A stretch of DNA of 64,000 bases from Podarcis liolepis (lineage: Eukaryota). How positions within the stretch are numbered: position 1 is the first letter of the stretch; every line of letters starts with the position of its first letter. The notes under the pieces were generated by a model. That model searched no databases, had not been told where the DNA came from, and saw only the letters and a list, made by a program, of their open reading frames with translations. Shown here in pieces: positions 1,928 through 62,194 of this stretch. The position numbers and the translations under genes were made by a program. Location of the stretch: assembly GCA_965112155.1 (NCBI GenBank), contig OZ218105.1. The stretch is one strand, 5' to 3'.

Positions 1928-1967
1928 GTCCAACAGTGACACTGTGAGTCTGAAACCGAGAACTGCA
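1928..1967 (-). promoter_or_regulatory. Pcdh promoter CSE / CTCF site of exon 1 (CACT variant)
   Basis: Minus strand TGCAGTTCTCGGTTTCAGACTCACAGTGTCACTGTTGGAC, 241 bp upstream of the ATG. The same 40-bp motif precedes all 11 exons. Confidence 0.85.
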
Positions 1968-4900
1968 ATCTTTTCCCAGTGATTTTTCTCTCCTAATTCA
2001 TGACATAGTAGTATTTTTATGTAATGACTCAGACCATATTCTCATACAGGCTATGTGAATATGTCTGTTAGAACGTGCTATCTGTTCACCATTATAATCA
2101 TCTTCAAATGAATATTTGCAGCAATAAAAACAGCAATCAATTTATAGCACTATTTCCACGATTTCTTTTTAAAAAATCAGAATAGCAGACTGCAGTATGA
2201 GAATGATATTGTTATTTATAATAAAAGACTTTTAAACAAATTAGAAAAATATTGTATTAGGTATTTACAGGCATCTTAGACTGTGTGTGGAAAGCCTAAG
2301 GACGTGTCTGAAAATTGTGTTTACCTTTACATAATTTCACTGAAAATAGTGCCACATCTCAAGTCCTATTTTGTCACCTTATGTCCACACGATTTCTGGT
2401 CTGTTTGTGTAGCTTCCTCCTTCAACAGATGTACTGTGTCAGTATTTACCTTTGCCATTTTCCCCACCTGCCCATTTGTCCAGTTACGATAGACACTTTG
2501 CTGATTTCATTTAGTTTGTGGTGTGTGCTATTGACCTTACACAACACCCCAGCTACTTCACAATATCACAGTTATGGTTAATCCTCTCTACGTATGCAAA
2601 CAATATGGAGATCCCTATTTTGCCGGGGGACGAGATAAGACAACCAGAAAGCTAATCAGAAATCTCAGCAGTCCTTTCAGTATTTTAGGAAGTTACATGT
2701 GGTCTCCAGCTGTCAATACAACTTCATTTAATCAAGGAACAAAACTGAATAAATAAGCCCTGGGTGTTATATCCTGGATCTCAAATGTTCTGAGCTTTCC
2801 CCTCCATTTTTAAACTTCTTTTTCTATGTTTATGTGGTAGCTGAGCACACTGCAATTGTCAGTCATGGGCCTGTCCCCTAATTCCTTCCAACAGCTAGCA
2901 CCAACCCTGGCAAGAACACTCCTCCATCCTCACATCTGCCCTACTGGCCATGAGCCCAGCAGGGAGTTGGAGGGGGTTGTTCATTGAAGGCTTAAGGAAC
3001 TCAAGTACCTGCTAAGATATCCCACAATACTATGATCAGAAATACAGTTATCCATCTATTCATGCATTCATGTCATGTAAGTATCATAGCTAACATGTTG
3101 GTACAGCAGTTCAAGAATTCAACATGCTTCGTGTATATTGAGCTGGTCTCATTTAAAAAAGAAAACTGTGAACCAGGAATTCCATGGTATGAATTTTGCC
3201 TCTGACAGGAACTCAATTATATAAGAATTCTAAGATAATGTGTCAAATCCAGACGCCATCATACTTAGAGTAGCCCCACTTAAACAAATTTGACTTAAAT
3301 TAGTCTTGTTTGACTAATTGATCCAAGGATAACTAATTCTGAATTTGACCCATTATATGCAATGCCCTTTGAAACTTATAAATATCATATACACAGTATC
3401 ATTATTATTGTCTAAATCATGAGGCAGAAATACACGACGCAGGTAGGTAGCATTACTGAAAAAACTGACATGGAAATTGAAGACAGCAAGAGGCCAGGGA
3501 AAATATGATAACTTTTATGCAGTCTTGGATGACTTTATAGATTATACAAACAATGAGGCATGTGGCAGAACAGTGCCTTGGCATAACTGTCAACTTTTCC
3601 CTTTGCTTGCGAGGAATCCTATTCGGAATAAGGGAATTTCCTTTGAAAAAAGGGAAACGTTGACAGCTATGTGCCTTGGCCTACAGCACAGTTTGGTGTG
3701 CATGAAGCACATATTTTATTTTATTTTTCCTCCTTCCTTCTTGCCTTTGAATAATCCCTGCAGACCAGCCCTGCTGCTGATACAATATATATTTGTAGTT
3801 GTGATCAACAGTCAAAGAGATGGAGGTTATTATGTACCATTTTGTTTCTGTTGAGATTGAAATAATTTTAGAATATACACTTTAGCAAAGCTCTGTGGAG
3901 TATTTGAAGATAACTGTCTGGCTGTATGTAGTTGTTTTATTTTTGTTTTAAATAAATTTTAAAAATAAATAAATGCACAATGCATGTATTTAAGAAAATA
4001 TCCCACATTATCTGTGCGCCTGTCTGTCTCTCAGACAGTCGTTTAGAAAGAGCTTTGATGCAATGTGGTTTCACTTAAAGGAATATGGGGGCTGGAAATA
4101 GCCACAATCGACTCATTTATTTACGTCTGCTCTGATTTCTACCAAGTTGAAGGCCTTCCTTGCAGGTCACATTTAATTGGTGACCCCACTCTGGACTTAA
4201 GATTGGGATCAGTACTGAAACTGGTATTTGCTCTTCACTCAATTTTGTGTAGAGGAGGACATTTAAACACCAGGAGCAGGTAAATCTTAGGTATGAGATA
4301 ATTAGTTCTCCTTTCCACATCCACCCAAGCTAGTAAGGACGCTATGAGGCTAAGCATCCTTTTATGCCATGTTGCGCCCACTCTAGGTTCCTTAGGTTTC
4401 TAACCTACATAGAACATGTGCATTGTGGACTATTTAAATGGAATACTGGTATCTAGATGTAGCAAGGCTTTAAATCTCCACACTCTGAATTTTAATACTG
4501 AATTCCAGTATTAAAATAAGAAAAATGTGTCGACTAAACTAATCTAGATGTCATTAGTTTGATAAGGCAATTCAATCAGATGTTTCTGGAACTTTCCTCG
4601 TCATTGAATGAAACAGGGAAGCTCTAGATCTGAACTATGTATAAATACTTTATACAATGATGTTTAATGTGAATTGTAGGCAGCAATTCATTGTATAATT
4701 TCTAAGTGAAATTATATAAACAGCATAATTCACACTCATAACTTAGATTCAAACAATCTACTGAAGTTCATGGTAGCTGCAGTTCATTAAACTGAAAACT
4801 CACACAGTATAAATTAACAAATTTATAATTAATTTGATTTTATGGAGAAGGAAGTAAAGCATAATTTACAGACACCTCTCAAAAGTATATGTCTTTAAAA

Positions 4901-5356
4901 TCTATTGCTTAAAAAAATTGCTAGTAATACTAATAACAGTGACAGTATTTTCTGCTATATAGCAAGGTGCCCTCCTATGATTCTACAGCCAAAATTTCTG
5001 CCCCCCCCCAAGCCAAGTAATGTGAAAAACAAAGTTCTTTCCCTCACTTTATTTAATTTAATAAAAGTAGTTGAAGGTCAACTCCTCAAAATACTAGTTG
5101 TTCAAATGACAACAAGATAAGTTCTACCAGATGGTTTCAAGGGCATGGCTCGAAGCTGTAATGTGTAGCTTCCCCATGGAGTGAAAAGGACGCATCCTGA
5201 TTCATGAAAGCCAAATGATGTAAGAGCCAAACTATTCATTTATATGATGAAAAACAAAAAGGCAGTCACATTAACTGGATAAAAAGCACTCTGACAATGT
5301 CACTAATGGCAAAGAATAATAGATAATGTCATTTAATTTCAGAAAACAAACCTTAC

Positions 5357-7777
5357 CTGTTCTCCATTATCTACTGCAGAATCAAAATTGTTCCCTACAT
5401 TGCCTGTAAAAGGCACAGCAGGTTTCTCACTGCTTAGAATATTGTCTGCCATCTGAACATTGGGTGTCAGGAAGGCAAACTCATTCTTCCTGGTCTCAGA
5501 AGACAGACACAGCTGGTAGGAATAGGGCAAAGTCCCATCTTCAAAGTTGGGTGGGAAGATGGCACCATTCTTGGAATGGGGAACAGGACCAAAGCACTGT
5601 AGGAACCTGGGATGCCCTGAGTGACGGAGCTTCATTGTAACGGCCAGAATCACAGTCAAGAGGAACAAGAAGGAGATCACAGCTAAGGCCAGCACCAAGT
5701 AGAACTGCAGGTCAGACTGATAGTCCAAGCTGCTGGGTTGGCTCTTCATTTCCGGAAGGGCCTCCTGAAAGTTCTCAGCAAACACCAGGTTCAGAGTCAT
5801 GGTGGCCGAGAGAGACGGCTGCCCGTTATCCTTCACCGTAATGACCAGTCTCTGTTTCACAGCGTCTCTCTCCACAAAGGCCCTGGCTGTCCTGATCTCT
5901 CCAGTGTGAGAACCAACCGTGAAGAGTGCCGGCTCAGTGGCCTGAGTCAGGTGGTAGGAGAGCCAGGCGTTGTGTCCAGAATCTGCATCCACGGCCACCA
6001 CCTTGGTGACAAGATAATCTGCCTCGGCCGAACGAGGCACCATCTCAAACAAGATTGAGCCCTTGGCTTCTTGTGAGGGGGACAGGATACGAGGGCTGTT
6101 ATCATTCCTGTCAAGAACAAACACTCTGACGGTCACATTGCTGCTGAGAGGCGGAGAACCCCCATCTTGGGCCTTCACTTGCAGCCGAAACTCTCTGAAT
6201 TGTTCATAGTCAAAGGATCTCTGGGCATAGATGGTGCCAGTCTCTGAATTAATGGAGATATAGGAGGAGATGGGAAGCTCCTCGATGTTGCTGTTGAGGA
6301 TGGAGTATGTGATCCGTGAGTTCTGGTCCACATCGGGATCAGAGGCTTTGATGGTGAAAATGGAGGCACCTGAAGGATTGTTTTCTGGCACGTAGATGCT
6401 GTAGATTGATCTCTGAAAAGCAGGGGCATTATCATTGATATCTGAGATCTGTAGTGAGATTGTTTTGTGTGTGGAAAGAGGTGGAGTTCCTCTATCAGTG
6501 GCTGTGATTGTAATATTGTATGCAGGAGCTATTTCCCTATCCAGAGGACTGTCGGTCTGGAGCTTGAAGTAATTGTTAGATGAGGGAAGAATTTTGAAGG
6601 GTAAATTATCGTTTAAGTAGCAAGTAACCTTCCCATTATCTCCACTATCTTTGTCATTCACATTGATCAGTGCAATGATTGTTCCTGGCAGAGAATCTTC
6701 AGGAACAGGACTGAACATGGAGGCTAAGGTCACATCTGGGGCATTATCATTCTCATCTTGAACCCTTAGCTCAATGTTAGAATGTGTCACCAATCCACCA
6801 CCATCTTTTGCAGCAACTGTCATAGTATATTCATCATCGTCCTCAAAATCCAGTTCCTCCAGAAGAGTGATTCTACCACTGATGGGATCCAGCCTGAATT
6901 TCTGTTCAGCAGTTGCCGGTATGTTGCTAAAATGATACCTGATTTGGGCATTTGTACCTTCATCCTTATCAGAGGCTGCAACCTGGAGAACAAGTGACCC
7001 AACAGGAACATTTTCAGATAAGCTGACCTTGTACACCTCTTGAGTGAAAACAGGTGGGTTGTCATTGGCATCAGTAACATTAATCCGTATCTGGGCCGTC
7101 CCAGTTTTCCTAGGCTCACCCCCATCCATAGCAGTAAGAACCAAGTGAAGGGTCTGTTCACTTTCTCGATCAAGAGGTTTCTGTAGCACCAGTTCTGCAT
7201 ATTTATTTCCATCTTTTCTCTCTCTCACTTCCAAATTGAAATACTGATTGGAGCTCAGCTGGTAATCCTGGAGAGAGTTCATCCCAATGTCAGGATCTTC
7301 CGCTTTCCCAAGGAGAAAGCGGGCCCCAGGCAAGGTTAGTTCGCCTGTCTCCAGGTTGATGTTGCCATTGAGGAATTGTGGTGCATTATCATTAACATCC
7401 TGTATTTCCACTAGTACATGGAAAATATTCAAAGGGTTTTCCACCACAACTTCAAAATTAACAAAGCAATTTGGATTTTTGCCACATATCCCCTCCCTAT
7501 CAATCCTGTCATTTACATAGAGGTTTCCATTCTCTGCATTGATACTGAAATGCTGCATTTTAGCCACAGACACAGTGTGCAGATTGCGATGTTTTAGTTC
7601 TTTGGCGCTCAGTCCCAGGTCCTTGGCGAGGTTCCCCACAACGGAACCCTTTGCCATCTCCTCAGGGGTTGAATAATGAATCTGCTCTGATGCAGCCCAA
7701 CAGGTAAAAGACAAGAGAGAGAGAAGCAGTACTTGCCTTGTGAGTGCCCTGCCATTCCCTGGGTGCCTTCTCTCCAT
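5357..7777 (-). CDS. PCDHGB: Protocadherin gamma B-like variable exon 2 (807 codons)
   Basis: ORF 5339-7777 with six cadherin repeats (DxNDN, LDRE, AxDxG), TM and gammaB motifs [10 protein letters not shown] and [13 protein letters not shown]. Donor CAG|GTAAGG at 5357/5356, phase 0. Confidence 0.95.
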
Positions 7778-8048
7778 CTGGCTGGTTCTCTCAAAAACAG
7801 GCTGCTTCCTTTTCTCAGTTTCCTATGCTCAAGCTCTCACAGTGATGAAGGAAACAACATGAGGTATCACTGAAGAAGAATAAACTGCCCTTGTTCTCAT
7901 ATGTGTGCAAAGCAAAAGAGATTTTTCCTTCTCTGCACGAGTTCCGTCACTGTGCTCTTCAGCTGGCCTGATCTGAATAGCAGGGATGGGAGTTACTGCA
8001 GTCTAGGAAGCATCAATGGATGTCTATCCTCTCTCTGGCTCTCATACT

Positions 8049-8088
8049 GGCCAACACTGACACTTAGAGGACCAGTCAAGGAACTGCA
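8049..8088 (-). promoter_or_regulatory. CSE / CTCF site of exon 2 (CAGT variant)
   Basis: Minus strand TGCAGTTCCTTGACTGGTCCTCTAAGTGTCAGTGTTGGCC, 272 bp upstream of the ATG. Confidence 0.8.
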
Positions 8089-8598
8089 TTTTGTTCTATG
8101 AAAATAGACAGAGGTGAATAAATGCAGGTGTTTCTCCAGCACATACTGTACCTTCCTTTCTGCTCACTGAGTGGAGCATTTGAGAAGGCTTTTCCTTGGT
8201 GTTCTTTCTTAGTGTACAGCTACTCTAATTTATGTTCGTGGCGTTTCAGTACTGTGAAAATTGGGTTCATATCTGATACTGCAATTACATGAAGGTTATA
8301 CACATCTTCATTTTTTTTGAAACATGGAAACACTATTATTAATACATAAATATCCAGTTACATAGTAAAACTTTATCTTAAAATTAATGTATTACGATAA
8401 TAGTTACGCTATAGTAGCACAAGAGCTGTAAGTCAACTGTATTTTTGTTGTTGTTGCTTAAATAGAATATAAACACCCTATTGAAATTATTCTCTTTTTT
8501 TATCTCTCCTAAGTTGTTGGATGTCTGTTCATCAACATTTATGGAACAGAGTACAAGTTCTTCTCAGTGTTGGGTAGGAATTCCAAGAGTAATGTAAT

Positions 8599-8772
8599 AA
8601 AAGTGTAAAGGACCCCTGGATAGTTAAGTTCAGTCAAAGGCGACTATGGGGTGGCGGCGCTCATCTCTCTTTCAGGCCGAGGGAGCCGGCATTTGTCCAC
8701 AGACAGCTTTCCAGGTCATGTGGCCAGCATGACTAAACAGCTTTTGGCACAACGGAACACCTTGACGGAAGC
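8599..8772 (-). mobile_element. Sauria-type SINE, 3' fragment
   Basis: Plus strand gtaaaggacccctgga...cgactatggggtggcggcgctcatctc...ggccgagggagccggc...ggtcatgtggccagcatgact matches my recollection of the squamate Sauria SINE. The ACCTTT-like tail is at the left end. Confidence 0.75.
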
Positions 8773-8919
8773 TAGGCATGATCCAACAGGATAAAATGTT
8801 TGTTGGCACTTTACATGTGAGCTCATATCATGATAATAGCATCATGAAGTTTGGGAACTGAGAACAGTGGAGAGACAAGAGGTGTTAGAAGAAATCAATA
8901 GTGTCTAATTGAAAGAGTA

Positions 8920-9253
8920 CAGTGGTGCCTCGCAAGACGAAATTAATTCGTTCCGTGAGTTTTTTCGTCTAGCAATTTTTCGTCTTGCGAAGCACGGTGT
9001 CAGAAAAGTTTTGGAAAAGCTTCAAAAACCTCAAAAAAGGCTACCACACCGCGTTCTATGAGTTGCTCCTCGAAGTCAAGTCACAACTGTATTAACAGTG
9101 TTAAGAAAAAGGAAACAAACTTGCAAGACGTTTTCGTCTTGCGAAGCAAGCCCATAGGGAAATTCGTCTTGCGAAGCAGCTCAAAAACCGCAAAACCCTT
9201 TCGTCTAGCGAGTTTTTCGTCTTGTGAGGCATTCGTCTTGCGGGGCACCACTG
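8920..9253. mobile_element. Tc1/mariner-superfamily (Tigger/pogo-like) MITE, family 1
   Basis: TIRs CAGTGGTGCC(T/C)CGCAAGACGAA, TA target duplication on both sides, repeated internal CAAGACGAA motifs. Confidence 0.9.
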
Positions 9254-9604
9254 TATATGATAAAGGTTTTATTAGAAACTAACTAAAGTAATTTACTTTC
9301 AGTTTGTACGCATTAAAGGTAATATTGCTTTATAGAATATTGCTTTATAGAAGATAACATTGCTTTACAGAACAGCCTTTATTGCTCCATAGAACAGCCT
9401 CCAGGACCATAAACCCAATCTGGAGATGTGTATGCTATTCAAATATTTTTGCCTGCCATATATCCCCTTGAAACTGGAACCCCACGGAACGGAATTGACA
9501 TTTCCAAGTGATCACAACCAGAGTGCTGCCTAATTTTCAACATGCTTCTAGTTTTTCATCTGCTAGTCTATCACACAGAAACATTGCACACAATTCTATT
9601 TCAT

Positions 9605-9838
9605 AAAAACATAAGAAGAGCCCTGCTGGATCAGGCCAGAGCTCTATTGAGTCCAGCATCCTTTTCCCACTGTGGCCAACCAGATGCCCCTCAAAAGCTC
9701 TGCCCTTGGTCCACATTCAGAGGTGTCTGGTACTAGACATAATATAGCCAATGTGACAATGGTTTTTTCTAATCCCCCTTTAAAACCACCCAAGTAGGTG
9801 ACCATCATTGCACCTTGTGATAGTGATTCCCATTGTTT
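9605..9838 (-). mobile_element. CR1 LINE 3' end, left half of an interrupted copy
   Basis: acataagaagagccctgctggatcaggcc...gtccagcatcc resembles the start of the CR1 at 46020 and continues at ~10641. Confidence 0.7.
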
Positions 9839-10640
9839 GTTTGTTTAAATAAGTAAATTATTTAGAAATGGTTTATATAAAACATACAATTATCATTAAA
9901 TTCCTATTATGAAATCAAATAAAGCATATAGCCTTCATAAAGATCCAAATAAAGTATGTGGGTCTGTGTTATCTTGAACTTCATTGCAACAATAAATTAT
10001 GAAAAAACACACAGAAAGTTATCAGACTGCCTCCCCTCCCTGACTCTTAGTTGTATCATTGATAAAATATTCCATGCTGTAGTAATCCATTCCCCTAAAG
10101 TTGGTGTTCTTAGCCCCTGCTAAGACAAATAGTTGCTCTGGATACAGACACTAACTGTTGGAGTAATTATCTGTCTTCTGTTGTACTAAATCCTTAAAAT
10201 AACTAGATAAATCAATGAGAGAATCCATTGGCAAAGTGCATCCTGTAATTATTTCATTTTCTCTTATTACATCCACCCACAAATTCTTAATTTGGGACAT
10301 GCCTCCCAAATCTGTTGCATCCTAGCATTGGTTGAATTGTACCTCCAACATAATTATTTGCTGTGCTATAAATTTGACGAAACTGTGGGAGGCAGTGGAA
10401 GGCAGGAGTGCCTGGCGTGCTCTGCTCCATGGGGTCACAGCAAGTAAGACACGACTAAACAACTAAACAACAACCACCAAAATGTGACGAAGCCACAGTA
10501 GTGTCGTGTACCATAAAAAAATAAACATATATAAGTGTTTCTTAAGATTCACACTAATTGTTTGCTGCCATATCCATTTTCACTGATCCAATGTCCCAAA
10601 CGTCTGTGGCAATTACTTTGTTGCATTTAGTTGTCAACAA
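9839..10640 (-). mobile_element. Degraded L1/Tx1-type LINE 3' fragment
   Basis: Minus-strand translation with frameshifts gives WYTT..WLRHI...CWRYNSTNARMQQIWEACPKL..W, resembling the L1 ORF2 C-terminal cysteine-rich region. AT-rich tail at the left end. Confidence 0.55.
10382..10479 (+). mobile_element. Bov-B/RTE LINE 3' tip
   Basis: gcctggcgtgctctgctccatggggtcac...gacacgactaaacaactaaacaacaac, flanked by aaat(t/g)tgacgaa direct repeats. Confidence 0.8.
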
Positions 10641-10890
10641 GGAATTCCATAGTTTATCTATGCATTGTATAAAGAAGTACTTCCTTTTATCTGTTCTGAA
10701 TTTCCCAATGTTCAGCTTCATCCAGGCTCCAGTAGTATGAGGGGGGGGGATCTCTCTATTCATTTTCTCAACCTCATTCATAATTCTATACAGCTGTCTC
10801 ACTTCCCTTCTTGTATTTTATCCAAACTAAATATCCCTACAGAAGTTGTTGCACCCATGGATCATTTGGGATGCCTTTTTCTGTACTTGC
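10641..10890 (-). mobile_element. CR1 LINE ORF2 C-terminal fragment, right half of the interrupted copy
   Basis: ORF 10554-10802 contains YRIMNEVEK...MKLNIGKFRTDKRKYFFIQCIDKLWNSL, the typical CR1 ORF2 end. Confidence 0.8.
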
Positions 10891-11392
10891 TGTATTTCAC
10901 ACGACTTCTTTTTATGAATCCTCCAGAGAAGCCACACACAGTCCAAAATTATAATACAAATAAATAGGAAGCATTCATGTTCTATGCATTCTTCAGTTAA
11001 GCTGATGATAACAGGACAAATAAACTGTGCTTTGTGTGAGTGAAAAAGTACAAATCCATATTTTTAATTGATGAGGGGTGTATAAATAACTATATATTTA
11101 TGGTGACATGCTAATACACCACAGGAAGATTGAATACTCAAGCTGTATGCATGCCTACATTTCCTTTAATTCCTGAGATGAAGACTCACTCTGTCATTAT
11201 TCTATGATTCAGAATTTATGCTGCGTCTACCATTGCAATTTAAAAGCTACTTGCAGGAAAAGTTCTTCACAATCAGAACAACTGATGCCAATACTGTGAT
11301 TTGATTTTGCTGACACCATTTTATAGTAAAACAAAATAAAAATATTAGTTCTATTCCTATAAGGTAAGGCCATTTCTGAAAGCAAAACTTAC

Positions 11393-13822
11393 CTGCTCAC
11401 CAAACTCCTCTTTGGCATTGGCATCCCCACAGTTGCCATCCACAAGAACCACCTGAGAGCTATCATTGCATAGCAAGTTTTCTGCCACCTGGATATGGGG
11501 TTTTGGGAAAGAGATCTCCTCTTTCCTCATCTCTGACGATAGACAGAGTTGGTAGGAATAAGGTAAAGTTCCTTCTTCATAGTTTGGTGGAAATATGACC
11601 TGCGCCTTAGAAAAAGCATTAGGTTCAAAGCATTGGAATAATTTGGGATTTCCTGATTGTCGAAGTTTCATGACAATGACCAGTATCACCGTCAGGAGGA
11701 ATAAAAATGAGATCAATGCCAAAGCCAGCACCAAGTAAAACTGGAGATCAGAATGATGTTCTGTGTCACTGGATTGCCTAGTCATTTCTGGAAGTGCCTC
11801 TTGGAAGTTCTCGGCAATCACAAGGTTGAGGACCACAGTAGCTGAGAGTGGAGCCTTCCCATTGTCCTTCACCAAGATGACCAGCTTCTGTTTCACAGCA
11901 TCTTTCTCCAGAAGGGCTCGTGACGTCCTGATCTCTCCCGTATGGGTCCCAATGGTGAAGAGGGCCGGCTCTGTGGCCTGCAGCACTTGGTAGGAGAGCC
12001 AGGCATTGTGCCCAGAGTCAGCGTCCACAGCCACCACTTTGGTCACGAGGTAGCCTGGCTCTGCCGAGTGAGGAACCATCTCAAACAAGGCAGAGCCCTC
12101 AACACCCGGGACAGGATACAGAACGCGAGGGCTGTTATCGTTCTGATCCAAAATGTACACCCACACGGTGGCGTTGTTGCTGAGAGAGGGAGAGCCGCCA
12201 TCTTGGGCTTTCACTTGGATCTGAAACTCCCTGAACTGCTCATAGTCAAAGGAGCGCTGTGCATAGATAGTTCCTGTCTCAGAGTTGATGGAGACGTAAG
12301 AGGAGAGAGGCAGCTCCTCCATGTTGCTGTTGAGGATGGAGTAAGTGATACGTGAGTTGCGGTCCAGATCCGGGTCCGAAGCTTTGATGGAGAAAATGGA
12401 GGCACCTGAGGGATTGTTTTCAGGCACAAAGACACTGTAGGTTGATTTTTCAAAGGCAGGGGGGTTGTCATTGATATCTGAAATCTGCAGGAAGATGGTT
12501 TTGTTGGAGGAGAGAGGGGGGCTACCTTTGTCGGTGGCCGTGATTGTGATGTTGTATCCTGAGGCTTTTTCTCTGTCCAAAGGACTGTCTGTAAGGATTT
12601 TGTAGTAGTTCTTAGATGTTGACACTATTTTAAATGGTACATTACTTTGTAAGTGGCAGGTGATCTTTCCATTTTCTCCCGAATCCCTATCCTTTACGTT
12701 GATGAGAGCTATTACTGTTTCAGAAACAGAATCTTCAGGAACTGGACTAGATAAGGAGGCTAGAATAATTTCTGGAGCATTATCATTCTCATCTATAATC
12801 TTTATATCAACATTACAGTGAGCCACTAATCCACCTCCATCTCTTGCTTCAACTGCCATAATGTACTTCTCTGTTTTCTCAAAGTCAAGGGTCTCCTTAA
12901 TTGTAATTGTTCCACTTTGTGGATCTAATCTAAATTTCTGGTAGACTTCTTCTGGAACTTTACTGAATGTGTAACTGATCTGACTATTTGAACCTTCATC
13001 CCTATCAGAGGCTTTTACTTGGAGTATGGGGGACCCCACAGGGGAATTTTCCCTCAGGCTAACTGTATAAACCTCTTGAGTGAAGACTGGTGGGTTGTCA
13101 TTGGCATCTGTGACGTTAATCCATATCTGGGCAGTCCCAGTTTTTTTGGGTTCACCTCCATCAAGAGCTGTAAGGATCAACTGAAGCGAGTGCTCACTTT
13201 CCCGATCCAAAGGTTTTTGCAGCACCAACTCTGCATTTTTATGGCCATCTAGACTGTGTTTAATTTCTAATACAAAGAACTGATTTAGGTTTAACTGGTA
13301 GTTTTGGAGAGAATTAATCCCAATATCAGGATCTTCAGCTTTCCCAAGGAGAAATCTGGCACCTGGCAATGTGGATTCAATTATTTCCAGTCTAATATTG
13401 GCTTCTAAGAAATGTGGGGCGTTATCATTAATGTCCTGAATTGCTACACTTACATGGAAAACATTCAATGGCTTTTCAACCATCGCTTCAAAATCAATAA
13501 GGCAGTGTGTGCTCTCTCTACACATCCCCTCACGATCTATCCTCTCATTCACATACAGGTTTCCATTTTCAGCATTGATAGTGAAATATGGCTTTTTACC
13601 TTCAGAAATGATATGCAGGTTTCTGCTCTTCAGTTCTCTGGCATTCAGTCCTAGATCCTTGGCAAGATTTCCCACCAAAGATCCCTTTGCCATCTCCTCA
13701 CGGATGGAATAGTGAACCTCTTCCAAAACTGCTCCACAGAACAAAGATGAAAATATCAGAAGTGTTATATACCTTCCTGGTGTTTGAAAGCTCTCTCCAC
13801 GAAGGATTCCTCTCATCTTCAT
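11393..13822 (-). CDS. PCDHGB: Protocadherin gamma B-like variable exon 3 (810 codons)
   Basis: Track ORF 11357-13846 starts at GTG; first ATG is 13822. Motifs [19 protein letters not shown] and [13 protein letters not shown]. Donor CAG|GTAAGT at 11393. Confidence 0.95.
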
Positions 13823-14042
13823 TTTCCTCTTCTCTTTGATGAGCACAGGATTTCAGATTTCCCCCCAGTAAAAAAAGAACTGGATCCTTTGGCTTAATTT
13901 GTATATGCTGCAGTGTTTTCTGTTTTCCAGCTGAAACATTCGTTCCAGCGTCTGCTGGTATTCCCGATGTGCAGTTTGGGACAAAGAGATCTCTCTGCAG
14001 AAAGCATCAGTGGAACTTCAGCTGCCCATGGATTGCCGCCTT

Positions 14043-14082
14043 GTCCAACAGTGACACTGTGAGTCTGAAACCAAGAACTGCA
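14043..14082 (-). promoter_or_regulatory. CSE / CTCF site of exon 3 (CACT variant)
   Basis: Plus strand gtccaacagtgacactgtgagtctgaaaccaagaactgca, 221 bp upstream of the ATG. Confidence 0.85.
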
Positions 14083-16243: not shown

Positions 16244-16269
16244 CAGTCAGTCAGTCAGTCAGTCAGTCA
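16244..16269. repeat. (CAGT)n microsatellite
   Basis: About 6 units. Present only in copy 2 of duplication A. Confidence 0.9.
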
Positions 16270-50689: not shown

Positions 50690-51360
50690 AAGAAAAGGTG
50701 TTAGCAGGTGACAATATTGATATAGTAGCACCCCCTATGAACCTACTCATTCAGGAGGACCCCACCCAACGCACACAACTGACCAATTATCCAGCCTCAG
50801 GGAGACCCACTCAAAGCTCCTCTGTCTTGCCAGGATTCAGAGTTTTGTTGGCCATCATTCAGCTGAACACTAAGCCTAGGCACTAGTCCAGGGATTGCAC
50901 AACCGCTTCTGATTTAGAAGTTACAGAGAAGTAGAGCTCAGCATCATCAGCATGCTGATGACACCTTGGCCAAAATTGCTCAATGACTATCTCCAGAGGC
51001 TTCATATATAGATGTCAAACAGCACTGAAGACAAAATGGTACCCTGTGGCACCCACCAGCACAACTGCCAGCGGGCTCAAAGACAATCACCCAAGGTTGT
51101 TTTCAGAAACCAACTCTGGAAATAGAACCAGAACCATTGTTAAACAGTGTCTCCAGTACCCATCCCATTAAGTCAGTTCAGAAAGATATAAAGGTAATTG
51201 TGTCAAAAGCCACTGAGAAAGAAATCAGGTAAGGTTAACAGGATTATACTTCCCCTGTACTTCTCCTAGTAAAGATCACCCATCAGTGACAAAGGTCAAT
51301 TCAGACCCATAACCGAGGCCTGAAAGCAAATTGAAATGGGTCAAGATAATTTGTTTTGTT
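50690..51360 (-). mobile_element. Degraded L2 LINE reverse-transcriptase fragment
   Basis: Minus-strand translation gives VPQGTILSSVLFDIYMKPLE...CHQHADDAELYFS and SVAFDTI, which are L2-type RT motifs. Confidence 0.75.
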
Positions 51361-51505
51361 CCAGAGTACTTGTATCGTCACTTCTGACATTGTGGTCTGA
51401 CATTGTGGCTCCTTGTGATATTCAAGTCAACTAGCAGTTACAACGTTATCCTAAAGCAAATCTTTGAAAGACAGGTAATGTATCCCTCAGTCAGCATTCC
51501 TTCTC

Positions 51506-51601
51506 ATGTCAGGAGTGCTCTGATGGTGTTTCCTGCTTGGCAGGGGGTTGGACTCGATGGCCCTTGTGGTCTCTTCCAACTCTATTCTATGATTCTATGA
51601 T
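51506..51601 (+). mobile_element. Young, 5'-truncated CR1 3' tip
   Basis: ggcagggggttggactcgatggccc...ttccaactctattctatgattctatgat with the ATTCTATG octamer tail. Absent at the paralogous site ~63712. Confidence 0.85.
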
Positions 51602-52175
51602 TCCCCTTTCCCTACTCCATCCCAACACCAGAGCACATTAGTTTTCCCCCACCTATATTTTATGAATAAGAACAAATCAGTGTGCCTTCCTGACATATCA
51701 TTTCCAGGATTTAATGATCCCCTGTGGCATTATTTCATGGGCAATATTAGATTCACTTACTGTGTGCTACAAAGGTTTCCCCTTCTCAAACACTAGTTAC
51801 CATGGGTGGTATCCAGTGTTCTAGACCCAAGTAGAGCTAAATAGTATCTACATTATACAATTCCACATATTATACAAAATCTATATGCTACACCATGTTA
51901 AAGAGAGAATTATGTAGATACTATGGGAAGCAAATTTGCTATAAAGGACATATCAAGAATTGCACCTATTGCACAACTATTTTGGAAGAAATAATACTGA
52001 ACTAATCCCTGGATTTGTATTTGAGTAAATAGTGGGGATAATAATTGATTCATCAAAGATAGATCTATCAGTCCCAACTTTCTTTGGTTTTTGTCTTTAT
52101 CTGTTTGTCTTTATCTGTGATTGAGTTCCCTGAACTTCAAAAAGCATGTCACATTTATACCAGCTGTAGAAATTA

Positions 52176-52408
52176 CAGTGGTACCTCAGGTTACATACGC
52201 TTCAGGTTACATACGCTTCAGGTTACAGACTCCGCTAACCCAGAAATATTAAGAACTTTGCTTCAGGATGAGAACAGAAATCATGCAGCGGCGGCGCAGC
52301 GGCAGCGGGAGGCCCCCATTAGCTAAAGTGGTGCTTCAGGTTAAGAACAGTTTCAGGTTAGGAACAGACCTCCGGAATGAATTATGTTCTTAACCTGAGG
52401 TACCACTG
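52176..52408. mobile_element. Tc1/mariner-superfamily MITE, family 2
   Basis: TIRs CAGTGGTACCTCAGGTTA / TAACCTGAGGTACCACTG with TA flanks and an internal TCAGGTTACATACGCT tandem. Confidence 0.9.
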
Positions 52409-52774
52409 TATAAGGCACAAGAGAAGACATTAGTTAGAAAGGGGAATAATTACACTTATTTGACTGACTGGATTTTAATCTATAGTACAATGCTTTAGAT
52501 TATTAATCTTGTAAGATTAATTTTGTTGTACTGATATATTTTATGTTTAAGATTATTTTAATTTCCTTATTGTTTTGTATCATTTCCTATGTCAACTTGG
52601 GGTATGTGGATTTTATATGGAAGTGCTAATTCACTTTGCCTTTCCTTATATTAAAAGTTTCCTTTCATTACTCTCAATACATTGCTATGGTCTGTGACTA
52701 TCACAATGCATTCATTCATGACAGGCCGAGGCGTGAGCTTTGGGCTAGTGATGTTCCAGTTCAAAAAGCAGAAA

Positions 52775-52926
52775 GGTCATAGCTCAGTGGTAGAGCATCT
52801 GCTTTTCCTTCAAAAGGTTCAAAGTTCAATCCTCAGAATCCTGAGGTAGGAAAGCGAAGGTCTTCTGTATGAAGACCTGGAGAGCTGTTGCTAGTTAGTG
52901 TGGACAGTACTGAGCTTGATGGACCA
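52775..52926 (+). mobile_element. tRNA-derived squamate SINE (Squam3-like), degraded
   Basis: CATAGCTCAGTGGTAGAGCATCTGCTT A box, GTTCAATCC B box, body ...CCTGGAGAGCTG...TACTGAGCTTGATGGACCA. Confidence 0.7.
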
Positions 52927-53616
52927 AGTGTGTCCGTAGTCTTGAGGGAAACCCTAGTTTTACAGAAGTACAAAAAAACAAGAGAAGGTTGTTCAGAAAC
53001 TGATCAAAGACAGCAGAGCATGCTCAGTAGAAACACAATGCTCAATGCCTGTTGGAGGAGAAAAATATAAAACAGGGGAGGAGGAGGAATGAGATATTAT
53101 GGAAAAAGCTGGCTGAAACCAGACCCCACTTCTTACTCTGTAACATTCAAAGCACAATAATTCTTCAGTAAAGATCTCCAAAACCTCAGCTAAAAGTCTG
53201 AAGCAAGTCTGCAGATTTACAAATTGCACACACCTCGTCCCTTACATATGCCAAGAGACCCCACCATTTGCAGCATTGTGTTGGTTCTATAGGGACATTC
53301 AGCTGAATTCATGAAGATCAAGATTAGGGAAAGAGGGTAAAGTATATACAAATATTCAAAAGGGAATCAGAGGGAATGAAATGATTAATTAAACTATATT
53401 ACCTGTATATGCAGAGATGAAAGAGTAAACTGATTATTACAACATACTTTTAAATATTAAATCTCAGTAAAAAAAAATTGCACCAATTGTGTTGTAGCAG
53501 ATACTGCTCAAAAGAAAACTCTCCAAGATGAGTGAGCTTAAAATATATTAGTACTCTATTCATATGCAGGGAATGCAGAATCTGTTCACCATGTACTGTT
53601 TAAAAAAACAACTCAC

Positions 53617-56037
53617 CATATCAGCTCTACCCATCTCAGAAATTAGGATATTGCCTCCATTGGCAGTCAAAGGTGCATCAGACTGAGTGTTGCATGAAAT
53701 ATTCTCTGCAGTTTGAAGATTGGGTGTTGGAAAGGTGAACTCCTGTACCCTGGACTCAGAAGATAAGCACAGCTGATAGGAATAGGGCAATGTTCCTTCT
53801 TCATAGTTTGGTGGGAAAATGACTGTGTTGTTTGAATGGGGAACAGGAGCAAAACACTGCAGGAATTTGGGGTTCCCTGATCGCCGAATCTTCATGAGAA
53901 TGGCCAGAATTACTGTCAGGAGGAATAAGAAGGAGATCAAAGCTAAGGCCAGCACCAAGAAGAACTGCAGATCCGATTGATACTCGGAGTCACTGGGCTG
54001 GTGGCTAATTTCCGGAAGTGCCTCCTGGAAGTTCTCAGCAAACACCAGGTTGAGACTCACAGTAGCAGATAGTGGTGGCTGCCCATTATCCTTGACTAAG
54101 ATGATGAGCTTCTGCTTCACAGCATCTCTTTCCAGAAAAGCCCGTGAGGTCCTGATCTCCCCACTATGGGAACCAATTGAGAACAGCCCAGGTTCTGTTG
54201 CCTGGAGCAGATAGTAGGAGAGCCAAGCGTTGTGTCCAGAGTCAGCATCCACAGCCACCACCTTGGTCACCAGATAACCCTCCTCTGCTGAGCGAGGCAC
54301 CATCTCAAACAAGGAGGAGCCCTCTACTCCTTGAGAAGGGTAAAGAATCTGAGGGCTTTGGTCATTCTGGTCCAGAATGCACACTCTCACGGTGGCATTG
54401 CTGCTGAGGCGGGGGGAGCCTCCATCTTCGGCCCTCACCTCCACTTGAAACTCCCTGACTTGCTCATAGTCAAAGGAGCGCTGAGCATAGATAGTGCCAG
54501 TCTCAGAATTAATGGAGAGGAAGGATGAGAGAGGCAGCCCCTCAGTGATGCTGTTGCGAATGGAGTAGGTGATTTGAGCATTCTGGTCCACATCTGGGTC
54601 GGAGGCTTTGACCCTGAAAATGGAGGAGCCTGAAGGATTGTTCTCTGGGACATAGGCAGTATAATAGGGTTTCTCAAAGACAGGGCAATTGTCATTGATG
54701 TCAGAGATCTGCAGTGTGATGGTTTTGTATGTGGAAAGAGGGGGGTTGCCTTTGTCTGTGGCTGTGACTGTGATATTGTACTCTGGAGTTCTTTCTCTGT
54801 CCAAGGGAGAATCTGTGAGAAGCTTATAATAATTATTGGAGGCTGATACCATTTTGAATGGCAAAGTGTGTTGTATGTCACAAGTAATCTTCCCATTATC
54901 TCCAGAGTCTCTATCATTTACATTGATAAGGGCTACCAGGGTTCCTACTGCAGAGTCTTCAGGGATGGGGCTGGATAAAGAGGCAAGAATCACTTCTGGG
55001 GCATTGTCATTCTCATCTAGGAGTGTTATTTCAACATTGCAGTGAGCTACTAATCCTCCCCCATCTCTTGCTTCCACTGCCATTGCATATCCTTCTGTTT
55101 CTTCAAAGTCCAGAGGCTCCTTAAGTGTTATTGTCCCATCTTGTGGATCCAGGTAGAATTTCTGGCGAGCAATTTCAGGGATATTACTAAAACTATAGTT
55201 TATCTGGGCATTTGAACCATCATCTCTATCTGTGGCTTTCACCTGGACCACTGATGACCCTTTGGGGGCATTTTCTTTCAGCTTGACCACATATACTTTT
55301 TGAGTGAAGACTGGTGGGTTGTCATTTGCATCAATGACGGTGATCCATATTTTGGCTGTTCCAGTTCTGGCAGGCTTCCCTCCATCCAGCGCCGTAAGGA
55401 TTAATTGGAAACGGCTTTCACTTTCCCGATCCAACTGTTTATTCAATACTAATTCTGCATATTTCTTTCCATCCTTTCTTTCTCTCACTTCCAGAATAAA
55501 ATACTGATTTGTGCTAAGGTTGTAATTCTGGAGAGAATTCACCCCAAGATCAGGATCTTCAGCTTGTTCAAGGAGAAACGTGGTGCCTTTTAAAGAGGAT
55601 TCACTTATCTCCAGCTTGATATCCCCATTTACAAAACGTGGTGCATGATCATTAATGTCTTGGATCTCTACAGTTATATGAAAAATATTCATAGGACTGT
55701 CAAGCACCACTTCAAAATTGATGGAGCAGAATGCAGTTTGACCACATAATTCCTCTCTATCAATCCTTTCCCTTACATACAGATTTCCATTTTCTGCACT
55801 GAGAGTAAAGTATTGCTTTTTACCTAGGGAAAGGATATGCAGATTGTAATTTCCTATTTTTCCATTATTCAGGCTCAGGTCTTTGGCCAGGTTTCCTACA
55901 ATGGATCCCTTTTCCATTTCCTCAGGGATAGAATAATGAATGTGCTCTGAGGCAATCTGACCACACAGAGAGAATAATAAGAGGAGAGGTACTTGCCTTC
56001 TTAGGGATCTGCTGCTATCTTTCTGTTTGCCGGCCAT
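53617..56037 (-). CDS. PCDHGB: Protocadherin gamma B-like variable exon 10 (807 codons)
   Basis: Track ORF 53560-56040 starts at GTG; ATG at 56037. Donor ATG|GTGAGT at 53617. Confidence 0.95.
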
Positions 56038-56293
56038 CACTCTTGCAGAGAAATGTGCTTTATCCTTTCTTTCTGTGATTAGTTAAATTGAGTAGTATTA
56101 AATCCCATTCACTCTGTAGAAGTGTTCAATAAAGAATCATGAACGAAGTCGGTAGCTGCTGCTGGATTTCTATACCTTGCAGTGGTTTTGTTCCTGTGTT
56201 CTGCTGTTTCCCGGCTCTGTAGTTTGTTCATGAGCAATCAAATTGCAAAAGCATCTGGTAGTGAATTCTCCACTCCTCCATGTGAACTATATT

Positions 56294-56333
56294 GGCCAAC
56301 AGTGACACTCTGAGTCTTAGATGGAGAACTGCA
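56294..56333 (-). promoter_or_regulatory. CSE / CTCF site of exon 10 (CACT variant)
   Basis: Identical to the exon 8 element, 257 bp upstream of the ATG. Confidence 0.85.
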
Positions 56334-58336
56334 AGATGTGTCTTTTCTTTTAAGTAAATAACATGTAAAGGATTTCTTGCCATTTTTAATCTTACATACA
56401 ATGATTCTCAGGTAGAGAATCTTTTGTGGTATGGTAAAAAATAATAATTAGAGTTTGGTTTCTGTGTTTTGAAATTAGGAGAAGCAACAACTCAACTTAA
56501 TTAGACAAAACTGACCTACAGAAAACAAGCAAATTATATATTTTAGAAATTATCCCTTTCCCAAGTAATTTATGTCATTTTCCCTACCTTATTACCCCTG
56601 AGTACTTAGGAATGATAGCTTCAAAATACCAGAGAAAATTGATTATTTTGTAATAAATATACAAGGGTGCTGAAAATTATTCCAGTCATTTAATTTGCCC
56701 CTACGGTGCTTTCACACTTTCATAGCAGCACATTTGGCATAGCTCATGGGGGTGCGCTTCAGAAAACTGAACTGACTGATTAGTGTCCTTGTCTGATAGT
56801 ACAGTTGTGCAATCATATTTTTCTGACAGTTAGAAACTATTCATCCATATAGGTACGTGTCAACGTATTTAACCCCAGGAAGTGGTTCTCAGACCTAATG
56901 AATTCTGAGTTTAAAAGTTATTTTCCCAAAATGTGCAATAAGGCCTTTGGAATCTTTGTGTCACACAAAATTTCCCCTCTAAGGTACCACAGTTCTACTT
57001 TCTATTGCACCAACTGTCTTGCTGGCAATCGTCTCCTCAACTACTTGCCAGTTGAGGCACTTAATCAGTCATGTAAGTAGCTGTGTTAGTTGACAGTGAT
57101 GTGAGTGATTCGGGATACCTGGAGAAATTCCTAATGTTTGGCAAGTTCTTTTCTTTTCTAAAGGCATTACTTGACTTATGCAACTCAGTCATATAATGAG
57201 AACAGCACTAAAAGTACAATGCTTACTCAAGATCATGCTACAGTTTTTCTTGGGAACTTAAATCCTCTCTCTCCCCACCCCTCAGGCTTTCCATAGGCTT
57301 CCCTCCCTACCCAGATCACACCCCTCAACCCCTCACTGGCCTTCTTCCATGCCCTCCTCAAGAACTTTTGCTGGCTGCAATGTGTCCTTGAACTAGGATA
57401 TTGCTGCTTGCCTGGCTGGAGGACTCACAGATCTATGGAAGTGGAGATATTGAAACCTCTGAATACTGCATGCTTGAAATGTGGTCTATTGTACAAAGGT
57501 AAGAGTCACAGCAATAAAATATCACGGTTAGAATGCTAAACAGTGGAATGCTAGATTACGTTGTGGAATACTAAAGCAGCACTTGACAAGGCATCATCTA
57601 GCACTGTTATGGCTACCTATATGTCCTGTAAAATCACTTACTATACTCTTCCCATGATGTAGAGAGAAGGAAAATGTAGTCTAGAATATTTGGCTCTGAT
57701 GTGAACACATTATTATGAGTAGAAGAGGAAAGCATGCAATATATGTTTTAATCCCTTGCATTGTAAATTGGTACACTCAGAGGAGGACTAGAAGATCTGT
57801 GTTTATTTTCTGAACTTCCAGATCAGTATTGTATTCTTTTGATGAAATTCTGAACAATATGGTGACATAGTTCAAGTGTGTGTGTCTTCCTCAGAAGTAG
57901 AACCTTTACAGTGCATGCGCATATTGCTTTGTTCAGTGAATGGGACCTTCATTTAAAAGCTTTCTCAGGATAGAGAGCTGAGCAAAATAATGGAGCTCCT
58001 TCTACACTGGGAGAAAGATTAAACACAAAAGTGACTATTTTGGAGCAGCTCTTAGTCTTCACCAAAATCACAGGTGTTTGGGACAAATATGTGCATGCTT
58101 GTGTGTGTGTGCAGGTGCACACACAAGTCCCATCCTCAACATTTCTGTGCATGCACATTCATTTCAAACCTCCTGCATTTGGCACACCTCCTTGCCTGAA
58201 TTCAGCCCCAAACTCTTAGCCTCAGCAACTTGACATCTACACAAAACACAGCTATGACATAAAATACAGGCAAATCCACAGTCTCTTCACTTGCTAACCG
58301 AACTTCTGTAGATAGAATAAATTAGAAGCACGTGAT

Positions 58337-59386
58337 TAACATAAAAATATAAGAAGAGCATGTTGGATCAGGCCAGTGTCCTATTTCAGAATATTATTTT
58401 CCTTGCGGCCAACTGGTTGCCTGCAGGAAGCCCAAAAGTGGGACCTGAGTGCAACAGCACTCTCCTCACTTCTGATTCCCCACAACTGGTATTCAGAGAC
58501 ATACTCTCTCTAACTATGGAGATAGAACCTAAACACCATTGCTAGCAGGCCATGAAATAATGTTGTACATGAATGTGTCCATTTCTCTTTTAAAATCACC
58601 CAGGTTAGTGGGCACCATTACCTCTCATGGGAACAAACTCCGCAGTTTAACTCAGGGCTGTGTGAAGAAGTATTTTCTGCTGTCTGTCCTGAATCTTCCA
58701 ACATTCAGCTTCATTGGATGTGTCTTAGTTTTAGTGTTATGTGGGGAAGGGGCACTTATCCATCCACACTTTCCATACAACGCATAATTATATACACCTA
58801 TACCATGTCTTCACTTAATTGCCTTTTCTCTAAGCTGTATCAAAGTAAATTAAAAGGGTGAATGGCTCCATCCCCTTGCCAATTTTGGTTCATATTTTCC
58901 AGCTCCACCTTACCTGTTTTTAGGTAAGTTGACCAGAACTATACACAGTATTCCAAAATTTATTTTCTTTTTTTTCACAGCTGCCTCATGCTATGTCAAC
59001 ATCTTCATCAAACTGTTCTCTATGACCCCAAGATCTCATTCCTGTTTAGTCCCCATAAGCATATAAGTGAAACAACAGTTCTTTTGGCCCACTTTACACT
59101 TGTTCACATTAAATTGCATTTGCCATTTTACTGCCCATTCACTCGGTGTGGTTTGGAGAGATCCTTTGCGAGCTCTTTGCAACCCCTTCTTGTTTTAACC
59201 ACTCTGAACTATTTGGGATTAGCAAACTTGGCTACATCATGGTTCACTCCTAATTTTAGATCATTTATGAACAAGTTTAAAAGCTCAATACTGATTCTTG
59301 GAGGATTATACCTTCTACATCTCTCCATAAGGAGAATCGTCACTTTATTCCTACTCTCCACTTACCAATCTCCTCTTATTCCATAA
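58337..59386 (-). mobile_element. Degraded CR1 LINE 3' portion (duplicate of 46020-47060)
   Basis: Near-identical copy carried within duplication B. Confidence 0.75.
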
Positions 59387-59473
59387 CTGCTAAAATAGAA
59401 TATAAAATTCTGCAGAAATGCGGGGAAGAGTATCAAAGGTGCAATACAAATAAATCCTGACCATAAAGCTTAC

Positions 59474-61894
59474 CTCTTCATCCTTAGCCTTTTCAGAATG
59501 AAAATTGTTTCCACTGTTGCCTGTAAAAGGCACATCAGGTTTCCCACCGCTAACAATATTGTCTACCATCTGAACATTGGGTGTCAGGAAGGCAAACTCA
59601 TTCTTCCTGGTCTCAGAAGACAGACACAGCTGGTAGGAATAGGGCAAAGTCCCATCTTCAAAGTTGGGTGGGAAGATGGCACCATTCTTGGAATGGGGAA
59701 CAGGACCAAAGCACTGTAGGAACCTGGGATGCCCTGACTGACGGAGCTTCATTGTAACGGCCAGAATGACAGTCAAGAGGAACAAGAAGGAGATCACAGC
59801 TAAGGCCAGCACCAAGTAGAACTGCAGGTCAGACTGATACTCCGAGCTGCTGGGTTGGCTCTTCATTTCCGGAAGGGCCTCCTGAAAGTTCTCAGCAAAC
59901 ACCAGGTTCAGAGTCATGGTGGCCGAGAGAGACGGCTGCCCGTTATCCTTCACCATAATGACCAGTCTCTGTTTCACAGCGTCTCTCTCCACAAAGGCCC
60001 TGGCCGTCCTGATCTCTCCAGTATGAGAACCAACCGTGAAGAGTGCCGGCTCAGTGGCCTGAGTCAGGTGGTAGGAGAGCCAGGCGTTGTGTCCAGAATC
60101 TGCATCCACGGCCACCACCTTGGTGACAAGATAATCTGCCTCGGCCGAACGAGGCACCATCTCAAACAAGGCTGAGCCCTTGGCTTCTTGTGAGGGGGAC
60201 AGGATACGAGGGCTGTTATCATTCCTGTCAAGAACAAACACCCTGACGGTCACATTGCTGCTGAGAGGCGGAGAACCCCCATCTTGGGCCTTCACTTGCA
60301 GCCGGAACTCTCTGAATTGTTCATAGTCAAAGGATCTCTGGGCATAGATGGTGCCAGTCTCAGAATTAATGGAGATATAGGAGGAGATAGGAAGCTCCTC
60401 AATGTTGCTGTTGAGGATGGAGTATGTAATCCGTGAGTTCTGGTCCATATCGGGATCAGAGGCTTTGATGGTGAAAATGGAGGCACCTGAAGGATTGTTT
60501 TCTGGCACATAGATGCTGTAGGTTGATCTCTGAAAAGCAGGGGCATTATCATTGATATCTGAGATCTGTAGTGAGATTGTTTTGTGTGTGGAAAGAGGTG
60601 GAGTTCCTTTATCAGTGGCTGTGATTGTAATATTATATGCAGGAGCTATTTCTCTGTCCAGGAGACTGTCTGTCTGGAGCTTGAAGTAATTGTTAGATGA
60701 GGGAAGAATTTTGAAGGGTAAATCATCTTGTAAGTAGCAAGTGACCTTTCCATTATCTCCACTATCTTTGTCATTTACATTGATCAGAGCAATGACAGTT
60801 CCTGGCAGCGAATCTTCAGGAACAGGACTGAACATGGAGGCTAACGTCACTTCTGGGGCATTATCATTCCCATCAAGAACATTTATTTCAATGTTGCAGT
60901 GTGTCACCAATCCACCTCCATCCTTTGCTGCTGCTGTCATAGTATATCTTCTTGTCTCCTCAAAATCCAACATCTGCAGAAGGGAGATTATGCCATCAAC
61001 TGGATCCAGGCCAAATTTCTTTTGTCCATTCACTGGAATGTTGCTGAATTCATATCTGATCTGGGCGTTTAAACCATCATCTTTGTCAGAGGCTACAACT
61101 TGGAGCACAAAGGACCCAACAGGAGCTTCTTCATGCACACTGACCTTGTACACTTCTTGAGTGAAAACTGGTGGGTTGTCATTGGCATCTGTGACATTAA
61201 TCCATATCTGGGCAGTCCCCGTTTTTCTGGGTCCCCCCCCATCCAAGGCTGTAAGGATCAAGTGAAGAGAGTGCTCACTTTCCCGATCCAAAGATTTCTG
61301 CAACACCAGTTCTGCATTTTTACTTCCATCTTCCATTTCTCTAACTTCCAAAGTGAAGTACCGATTGGTGCTCAACTGGTAATTCTGGAGGGAATTCATC
61401 CCAATGTCAGGATCTTCAGCTTTCCCAAGGAGAAATCGTGCGCCTGGCAAAGTGGATTCAATTATCTCCAAGTTGATGTTATCATTGGGAAACAGTGGTG
61501 CATTATCATTAATGTCCTGAATTGCTATAGTTAAATGGAAGATATTGAGGGGATTTTCAACTACCACTTCAAAATTTAGTACGCAAATGGGAGTTATGTC
61601 ACATAGCTGCTCCCTATCTATTCTGTCACTTACATAGAGGTTTCCATTCTCTGCATTAATACTGAAAAACTGCATTTTGTTCACAGAGACAGCATGCAGA
61701 TTGCGCTTTGCAAGATCTCTTGTATTCAGTCCCAAATCCTTGGCAAGATTCCCCACAATCGAACCCTTTGTCATCTCCTCAGGGATAGAATAACGAATCT
61801 GCTCTGAGGCAGCCCAGCAGGAGAAAGGCAAAAGTAAGAGAAGCAGTACTTGCCTTCTGAGCGCTCTGCCATTGTCGTCGTGTCTTCTGTCCAT
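59474..61894 (-). CDS. PCDHGB: Protocadherin gamma B-like variable exon 11 (807 codons)
   Basis: ORF 59390-61894. Donor GAG|GTAAGC at 59474. Confidence 0.95.
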
Positions 61895-62154
61895 CTGGCT
61901 TTACAACAAATTAGCTGCTTCCTTTTGCAGATCAGATCAAAGCCCCATCAAGGTGCAGGATCACCATAAGGAAAAATAAGCTGCCTTTCTTCTTAATGTT
62001 TATAGAAAGTAGTTGAATTTTCTTTTCCTTTCTAGCAGGATTGCTCTGTCTTTGTGATGTGCTGCTTGTCCAACTTGCACAGCAATGATTAAACAGTTGC
62101 TCCTTAGGAAACACATGCGTGGATCTTTTCTCTTATCAGTCTGGCTGCCACACT

Positions 62155-62194
62155 GGCCAACAGTGACACCCTGAGGCTCAGATGGAGAACTACA
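62155..62194 (-). promoter_or_regulatory. CSE / CTCF site of exon 11 (CACT variant)
   Basis: Identical to the exon 9 element, 261 bp upstream of the ATG. Confidence 0.85.

Follow-up and report, generated by a model that had tools for sequence, protein, structure and literature searches.

Loss of the box CpG from CTCF-type promoter elements in the protocadherin-gamma cluster of the lizard Podarcis liolepis: probably a tolerated decay multiplied by tandem duplication

Clustered protocadherin (Pcdh) genes of mammals are described as carrying, at a fixed distance from each alternate exon, one forward-oriented conserved sequence element (CSE) or promoter CTCF-binding site (pCBS), in which an upstream module is followed by a core ending in a CGCT box (accessible parts of PMC7811963 and PMC3333863). 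The former, a review, calls this box highly conserved, a summary statement with which the comparison here is made rather than with per-gene mammalian boxes. We analyzed the corresponding element in a 64,000-nucleotide stretch of Podarcis liolepis DNA (contig OZ218105.1, G000:C8:84816001-84880000; hereafter the window) and fetched 200 kb to its left and 600 kb to its right, thereby covering all variable exons of the cluster. The lizard alternates share the mammalian arrangement of a single forward element composed of upstream module, core, and box, with none found in front of the distal gammaC-type exons. They differ in the box itself: the CpG at core positions 12-13 is kept at only 20 of 77 alternate promoters (6/12 alpha, 0/20 beta, 14/45 gamma), and CGCT at 3 of the 11 promoters in the window. 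A further difference concerns the surroundings, as CpG islands are annotated at the human PCDHGA7, GB3, and GB6 promoters (accessible text of PMC6617643), while none was found at the 77 lizard alternates. Weighing the evidence given below, we consider it probable that this reflects tolerated CpG decay, filtered by the base preferences of CTCF and multiplied by duplication.

Elements without CGCT have precedents outside mammals. In Xenopus tropicalis and zebrafish the alpha CSE lacks the CGCT box, and the Xenopus gamma box is less conserved than the mammalian one (accessible passages of PMC4978886). These published cases temper the proposal, made in the first-pass annotation of this DNA, that CpG loss implies a different or biased promoter-choice logic in this lineage. 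The lizard cluster differs from them in that a single subcluster interleaves CG and CA boxes, whose positions on a tree can be determined; the same passages hold no analysis of CpG decay or amplification. The green anole cluster shares the delta-alpha-beta-gamma order and the gammaB expansion, and the accessible text of that paper contains neither a mention of CpG nor a promoter analysis (PMC2764143). In respect to the general CTCF core, CA at positions 12-13 is an ordinary accepted variant (accessible sections of PMC10484683 and PMC10325916), whereas the gamma core departs from it at positions 3, 6-7, and 11, and affinity and methylation response of such a core lie beyond the coverage of those studies. 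A literature search, from which subscription papers were mostly excluded, gave no description of box-CpG loss in reptiles.

The window and its flanks comprise 1 delta exon, 12 alternate and 2 C-type alpha exons, 20 beta exons, 45 alternate gamma exons, and 5 gammaC-type exons, the last gammaC exon being left out of the tabulation. Beyond the window, subcluster labels were derived from position, signal motifs, and tree, and the names delta, alphaC, and gammaC3 are our interpretation of these. A matrix seeded on six of the sites and run over the window revealed exactly one ungapped 40-bp element 260-315 bp 5' of the ATG of each of the 11 exons, in the same orientation as transcription. The elements score 41-64 bits and every other place in the window at most 7 bits; as the matrix was trained on the same sites, these scores speak for sharing and position, not for CTCF binding. 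The first-pass annotation had reported 11 gap-free, same-orientation elements with a TGCAGTT-like upstream module and a box tally of three CGCT, seven CACT, and one CAGT, all of which was reproduced (CAGT at 8088; CGCT at 25612, 31592, and 38366). TGCAGTT itself is found in 6 of the 11 elements and variants in the other 5 (TGTAGTT 2, TGAAGTT 2, TGCAATT 1). With numbering along the 15-bp CTCF core (after PMC10484683), the box corresponds to positions 12-15. The elements are as follows:

1928..1967, minus strand: CSE with CACT; gammaB-type exon with ATG at 1687, six-copy family
8049..8088, minus strand: CSE with CAGT; exon with ATG at 7777, six-copy CAGT family
14043..14082, minus strand: CSE with CACT; exon with ATG at 13822, family of the 1967 site
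19524..19563, minus strand: CSE with CACT; single-copy gammaB-type exon with ATG at 19257
25573..25612, minus strand: CSE with CGCT; gammaA-type exon with ATG at 25300
31553..31592, minus strand: CSE with CGCT; single-copy exon with ATG at 31277 or 31316
38327..38366, minus strand: CSE with CGCT and C at core position 11; exon with ATG at 38081
43978..44017, minus strand: CSE with CACT; exon with ATG at 43721, duplicate of the 56333 site
49828..49867, minus strand: CSE with CACT; exon with ATG at 49568, duplicate of the 62194 site
56294..56333, minus strand: CSE with CACT; exon with ATG at 56037
62155..62194, minus strand: CSE with CACT; exon with ATG at 61894

Judged by sequence, we regard them as conserved Pcdh-gamma promoter elements and predicted CTCF sites. 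The invariant C2, G8, G10, C12, and T15, read together with published structures, suggest that they may bind CTCF and may be needed for transcription.

Extension of the analysis to the entire cluster showed one same-orientation element at each of the 45 gamma alternates, with CG at positions 12-13 in 14 and CA in 31 (25 CACT, 6 CAGT). The 12 alpha alternates carry CG (6), CA (5), or AG (1, in an uncertain register), and the 20 beta elements, one of which came from a separate search, TG (11), TA (5), or CA (4), but no CG. No convincing element was found at alphaC2 and three gammaC exons, and these were left uncounted. A CpG at C2 is present in 0/45 gamma, 3/12 alpha, and 1/19 beta elements, and 30 of the 45 gamma cores are devoid of any CpG. 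The beta subcluster (G000:C8:85030000-85142000) is characterized by T12 in 16 of 20 elements (TGCT, TGGT, TAGT), a decay absent from gamma; at positions 6-11 the beta core is nearer to the canonical core than that of gamma, and such a stronger core might compensate for the common T12. Within gamma, core position 11 is C solely where position 13 is G, namely in five out of five alternates (including the window site at 38366) and in the gammaC3-like gene. Close relatives of these genes with A13 have T11, and positions 11 and 13 seem to change jointly; C11 is the weakest base in published CTCF binding tests (PMC10484683, accessible sections). Outside the window, gammaA-type promoters mostly have their upstream module one base nearer to the core than most gammaB-type promoters do.

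Alternate promoters are CpG-poor throughout, and the box change is consequently one symptom of a wider condition. Over the 1 kb surrounding the first cadherin repeat's start, the CpG observed/expected ratio (o/e) of the 77 alternates is 0.11-0.41 throughout, with 4-17 CpG per kb, the bulk cluster having 0.23, and none of the 77 has a CpG island over promoter and 5' exon. Delta, alphaC1, alphaC2, and the gammaC3-like gene carry CpG islands of 1.5-3.6 kb (o/e 0.82-1.03); three other gammaC exons show an o/e of 0.36, and the last, untabulated gammaC exon overlaps a 1.1-kb island. This island-free state of all alternates, set against the islands at delta, alphaC1, alphaC2, and gammaC3-like, is new. 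To our knowledge, all mammalian alternate promoters have CpG islands. Outside the element, CpG density differs little between CG and CA promoters (0.215 against 0.159, p=0.057).

Within the gamma element, the loss has a distinct polarity. Core positions 2, 8, 10, 12, and 15 are invariant in 45/45 gamma alternates. Parsimony, which is blind to the direction of change and leaves room for reversions, places seven changes at position 13 and none at C12, both on the exon tree and on a promoter tree built without the box; a protein tree with the gammaC3-like gene added and one frameshifted exon omitted gives eight changes at position 13. CG is likely the ancestral state, since it is carried at 12-13 by the outgroup elements of delta, alphaC1, and the gammaC3-like gene as well as by the mammalian box. 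Background CpG decay, evaluated in six recent families, is strand-symmetric (CG/TG in 106 and CG/CA in 97 columns), and against such a background seven out of seven changes in one direction yield p=0.006. A second CpG at core positions 9-10 forms the mirror image, with TG in 44/45 gamma alternates and CG in the CpG-island promoters of delta, alphaC1, and gammaC3-like. As the decays at 9-10 and 12-13 run in opposite directions, each preserves the invariant base, and CpG decay in the gamma element appears to be filtered by CTCF's base preferences. The earlier reading of CG>CA as a footprint of methyl-cytosine deamination, with A being tolerated at this CTCF position, is thereby supported; acceptance of CpA by CTCF is documented in section 13 of PMC10484683, in its accessible part.

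The generality of the loss has to be judged by lineage. The first-pass annotation stated that most promoter CSEs had lost the CpG, with a count inflated by duplication and about five independent cases. Its tally of 8/11 and the inflation stand. As a general loss the statement is not supported, being an amplification effect, and five marks the upper end, because the CA promoters of the window form five lineages possibly derived from as few as three mutations. After collapsing recent copies, with a seven-copy family taken as one despite its three sub-branches, the gamma promoters fall into 23 lineages, 14 with CG and 9 with CA. The background CG/(CG+CA) in gamma promoters is 0.075, making 14/23 CG lineages a strong excess (p=8e-11). 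Among 11 near-identical pairs, CpG bases differ 6.5x as often as other bases, approximately 15-fold per dinucleotide by a crude count, and for neutral evolution along branches of 0.26-0.9 changes per site, CpG survival is, again crudely, expected to be below 2%. The box CpG is undergoing a slow leak, no purge.

Recent amplification is distributed unevenly, affecting 0/14 CG against 6/9 CA lineages (Fisher p=8e-4). The finding that all three recent gamma amplifications lie on CA promoters is also new, with the restriction that it was made post hoc, on three events only, and that CG genes occur among older duplicates. Two duplicated arrangements belong to the window:

41312..63050, no strand assigned: recent two-gene tandem duplication, 41312-50716 against 53610-63050, 97.2% identical
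1..16235, no strand assigned: array end of a two-gene unit (CACT and CAGT promoters) with ~6 repeats, continuing to ~62 kb left of the window

The explanation which we consider probable, tolerated CpG decay that CTCF filters and duplication multiplies, combines these observations as follows. Alternate promoters, CpG-poor like the surrounding bulk DNA, would be germ-line methylated and lose CpG equally on both strands. Of the possible outcomes in the gamma element, G13>A alone is seen to survive, presumably since zinc fingers (ZF) 3-4 of CTCF need C12 and accept CpA, and tandem amplification of a few CA units then raised the count. CA sites would bind CTCF about like unmethylated CG, and all they would forgo is a 2-3-fold tuning by methylation. 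Promoter choice would continue to depend on enhancer contacts driven by cohesin and on chromatin access, the box CpG being a dispensable modifier, not the switch. Published structural work fits such a role, as ZF4/ZF3 bind CpG, methyl-CpG, and CpA, and CTCF is methyl-sensitive at C2 and insensitive at C12 (accessible text of PMC10484683). At one human site, a KD of 163 nM for unmethylated DNA was reported to change to 428 nM upon methylation of the motif-strand C12, 77 nM upon opposite-strand methylation, and 303 nM with both, i.e., to threefold weaker, twofold stronger, and twofold weaker binding (PMC10325916, Table S2, accessible part). The CA box has a T in place of the opposite-strand methyl-C and is hence predicted to bind CTCF well. 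The initial suggestion that these sites may bind CTCF regardless of methylation at this position is not supported as stated, given that the C12 effect is just 2-3-fold (PMC10325916) or absent (PMC10484683) and that CAC and CAG are favored contexts of non-CG methylation.

Several points weigh against this explanation. According to the accessible text of the mammalian review, methylation of the CGCT CpG precludes CTCF binding (PMC7811963), and C12 of the alpha12 site is treated as part of a methylation lock (bioRxiv 2022.03.09.483674, accessible passages). Furthermore, the gamma core is non-canonical, so that affinity values measured elsewhere may not apply to it. CG retention far exceeds neutral decay, indicating that either selection maintains G13 or bound CTCF protects it from germ-line methylation; in the case of selection, the box CpG matters. 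Finally, 3/3 recently amplified two-gene units are CA/CA pairs, a combination found in only 4/22 neighboring pairs (p ~0.003), and amplification restricted to CA is not predicted by plain decay. Relaxed constraint and homogenization after amplification would fit the link between CA and amplification equally well.

The amplification bias, in terms of both lineages and units, is the best sequence support for two promoter classes, CG promoters being methylation-gated as in the mammalian model and CA promoters constitutively CTCF-bound, chosen more often or under a different rule, with their amplification favored or permitted. Strong CG retention in single-copy genes would agree with this, as would the T opposite A13, mimicking the opposite-strand methyl group that doubled affinity, and the many CpG-free gamma cores, none with a CpG at C2. 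We nevertheless hold two classes to be rather unlikely. The association was noticed post hoc on three events, and redundancy, repeat methylation, or homogenization could have led to fixation of CA once amplification had occurred; single-copy genes also acquired CA (3 gamma, 5/12 alpha), and the measured C12 effects are small. RNA of a relative (see below) gives no sign of a class bias, its contig depths being unable to rank genes.

Quite improbable, in our assessment, is a CA box still subject to methylation, in this case neuronal and non-CG, at CAC (and CAG), one modifier being swapped for another. Non-CG methylation of the DNMT3A type has CAC as its context in neurons and CAG in stem cells (accessible text of PMC7978034 and PMC7736785), so that the CACT box is not strictly methylation-proof, and motif-strand C12 methylation cuts affinity threefold (PMC10325916). 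Against this reading, individual sites generally show little non-CG methylation, and it is not copied symmetrically.

Simple decay, with CA promoters dying and their genes turning into pseudogenes, is largely refuted and very improbable, its support being limited to one frameshifted CA-class gamma exon and the CpG poverty of the promoters, while the remainder of the element is invariant, CA-class dN/dS equals that of the CG class, and RNA of a relative covers CA-type exons. The first-pass annotation had named such decay as an outcome speaking against its reading, and the data go the other way: dN/dS is 0.13-0.29 in 13 CA/CA pairs, 0.19-0.26 in 5 CG/CG pairs, and 0.22 in 1 mixed pair, and 30/31 CA-class gamma exons have intact frames. 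By these sequence measures, CA-class genes are under normal purifying selection. The RNA of this relative (~97-98% alike) was mapped to 20 of the 64 kb from four runs, two of them only guessed to be RNA, with cross-mapping paralogues and with box classes taken from the window itself, and shows presence only. Between 11301 and 31300 both CA-type and both CG-type exons are covered, intergenic DNA is empty except for repeats, the stranded run is in sense orientation, and a single contig extends over the 5' leader belonging to the single-copy CA gene (19022-19440).

Current models let demethylation of the promoter CTCF site, C12 included, lock in the chosen protocadherin, and structural work finds C12 nearly insensitive. 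With one and the same anchor present in a CG and a CA form adjacent to each other, some on near-identical exons, the lizard cluster offers a natural direct test of this lock: equal behavior of both classes would mark the CpG as dispensable, and unequal behavior would mean a natural two-class choice system. The exons with ATG at 43721 and 56037 differ from the exon at ~68000 by ~0.02-0.04 changes per site and their promoters by ~0.5, which suggests gene conversion limited to the exon and places a CG and a CA promoter on nearly the same protein. A different choice logic in this lineage is possible, with a rather low probability. Equally tentative is the wider idea that lacertids choose isoforms without the mammalian methylation lock, with CpG-free, constitutively bindable anchors as a separate, repeatedly amplified class and CpG-island gating as a mammalian addition.

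An antisense model of promoter choice has been put forward for mammals (bioRxiv 360206, accessible text). In the 12 alpha exons no second, exonic CTCF site (eCBS) stood out, the best exonic matches scoring 6-10 against 15-27 for the CSE in what is, with a CSE-derived matrix, a weak test. By the same weak test, the alpha exons (G000:C8:85286000-85383000) may lack an anchor for the mammalian antisense route. A reverse-oriented CTCF-like match is located 1552 bp into the exon (window positions 12159 and 24, plus strand) in the six-copy family with CACT and in two relatives with CG, and may be a coding coincidence.

The exons themselves are large, single, arranged in tandem, and encode six cadherin repeats each, as is characteristic of clustered Pcdh-gamma variable exons:

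1..61894, minus strand: eleven variable exons of Pcdh-gamma, each with an open frame of 827-850 codons; the first extends past the window edge and is open in the neighboring stretch

Structure searches with 2 of the 11 exons, the other nine being assigned from the tree, gave gammaA9 as best PDB match for the exon with ATG at 25300, which also shares 97% identity with a gamma-A4-like protein of Podarcis muralis, and gammaB4 for the exon with ATG at 19257. A false assembly duplication is unlikely given 97% identity and dS of 0.06-0.22, a judgment based on sequence divergence. A search for tRNA genes found none. Short interspersed repeats between exons at ~15300-15970, 20835-21170, and 28450-28720 have very high RNA depth and loose ends. 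One exon of gammaA type and one of the beta exons are each broken into two frames, at G000:C8 ~84970300 and ~85085000.

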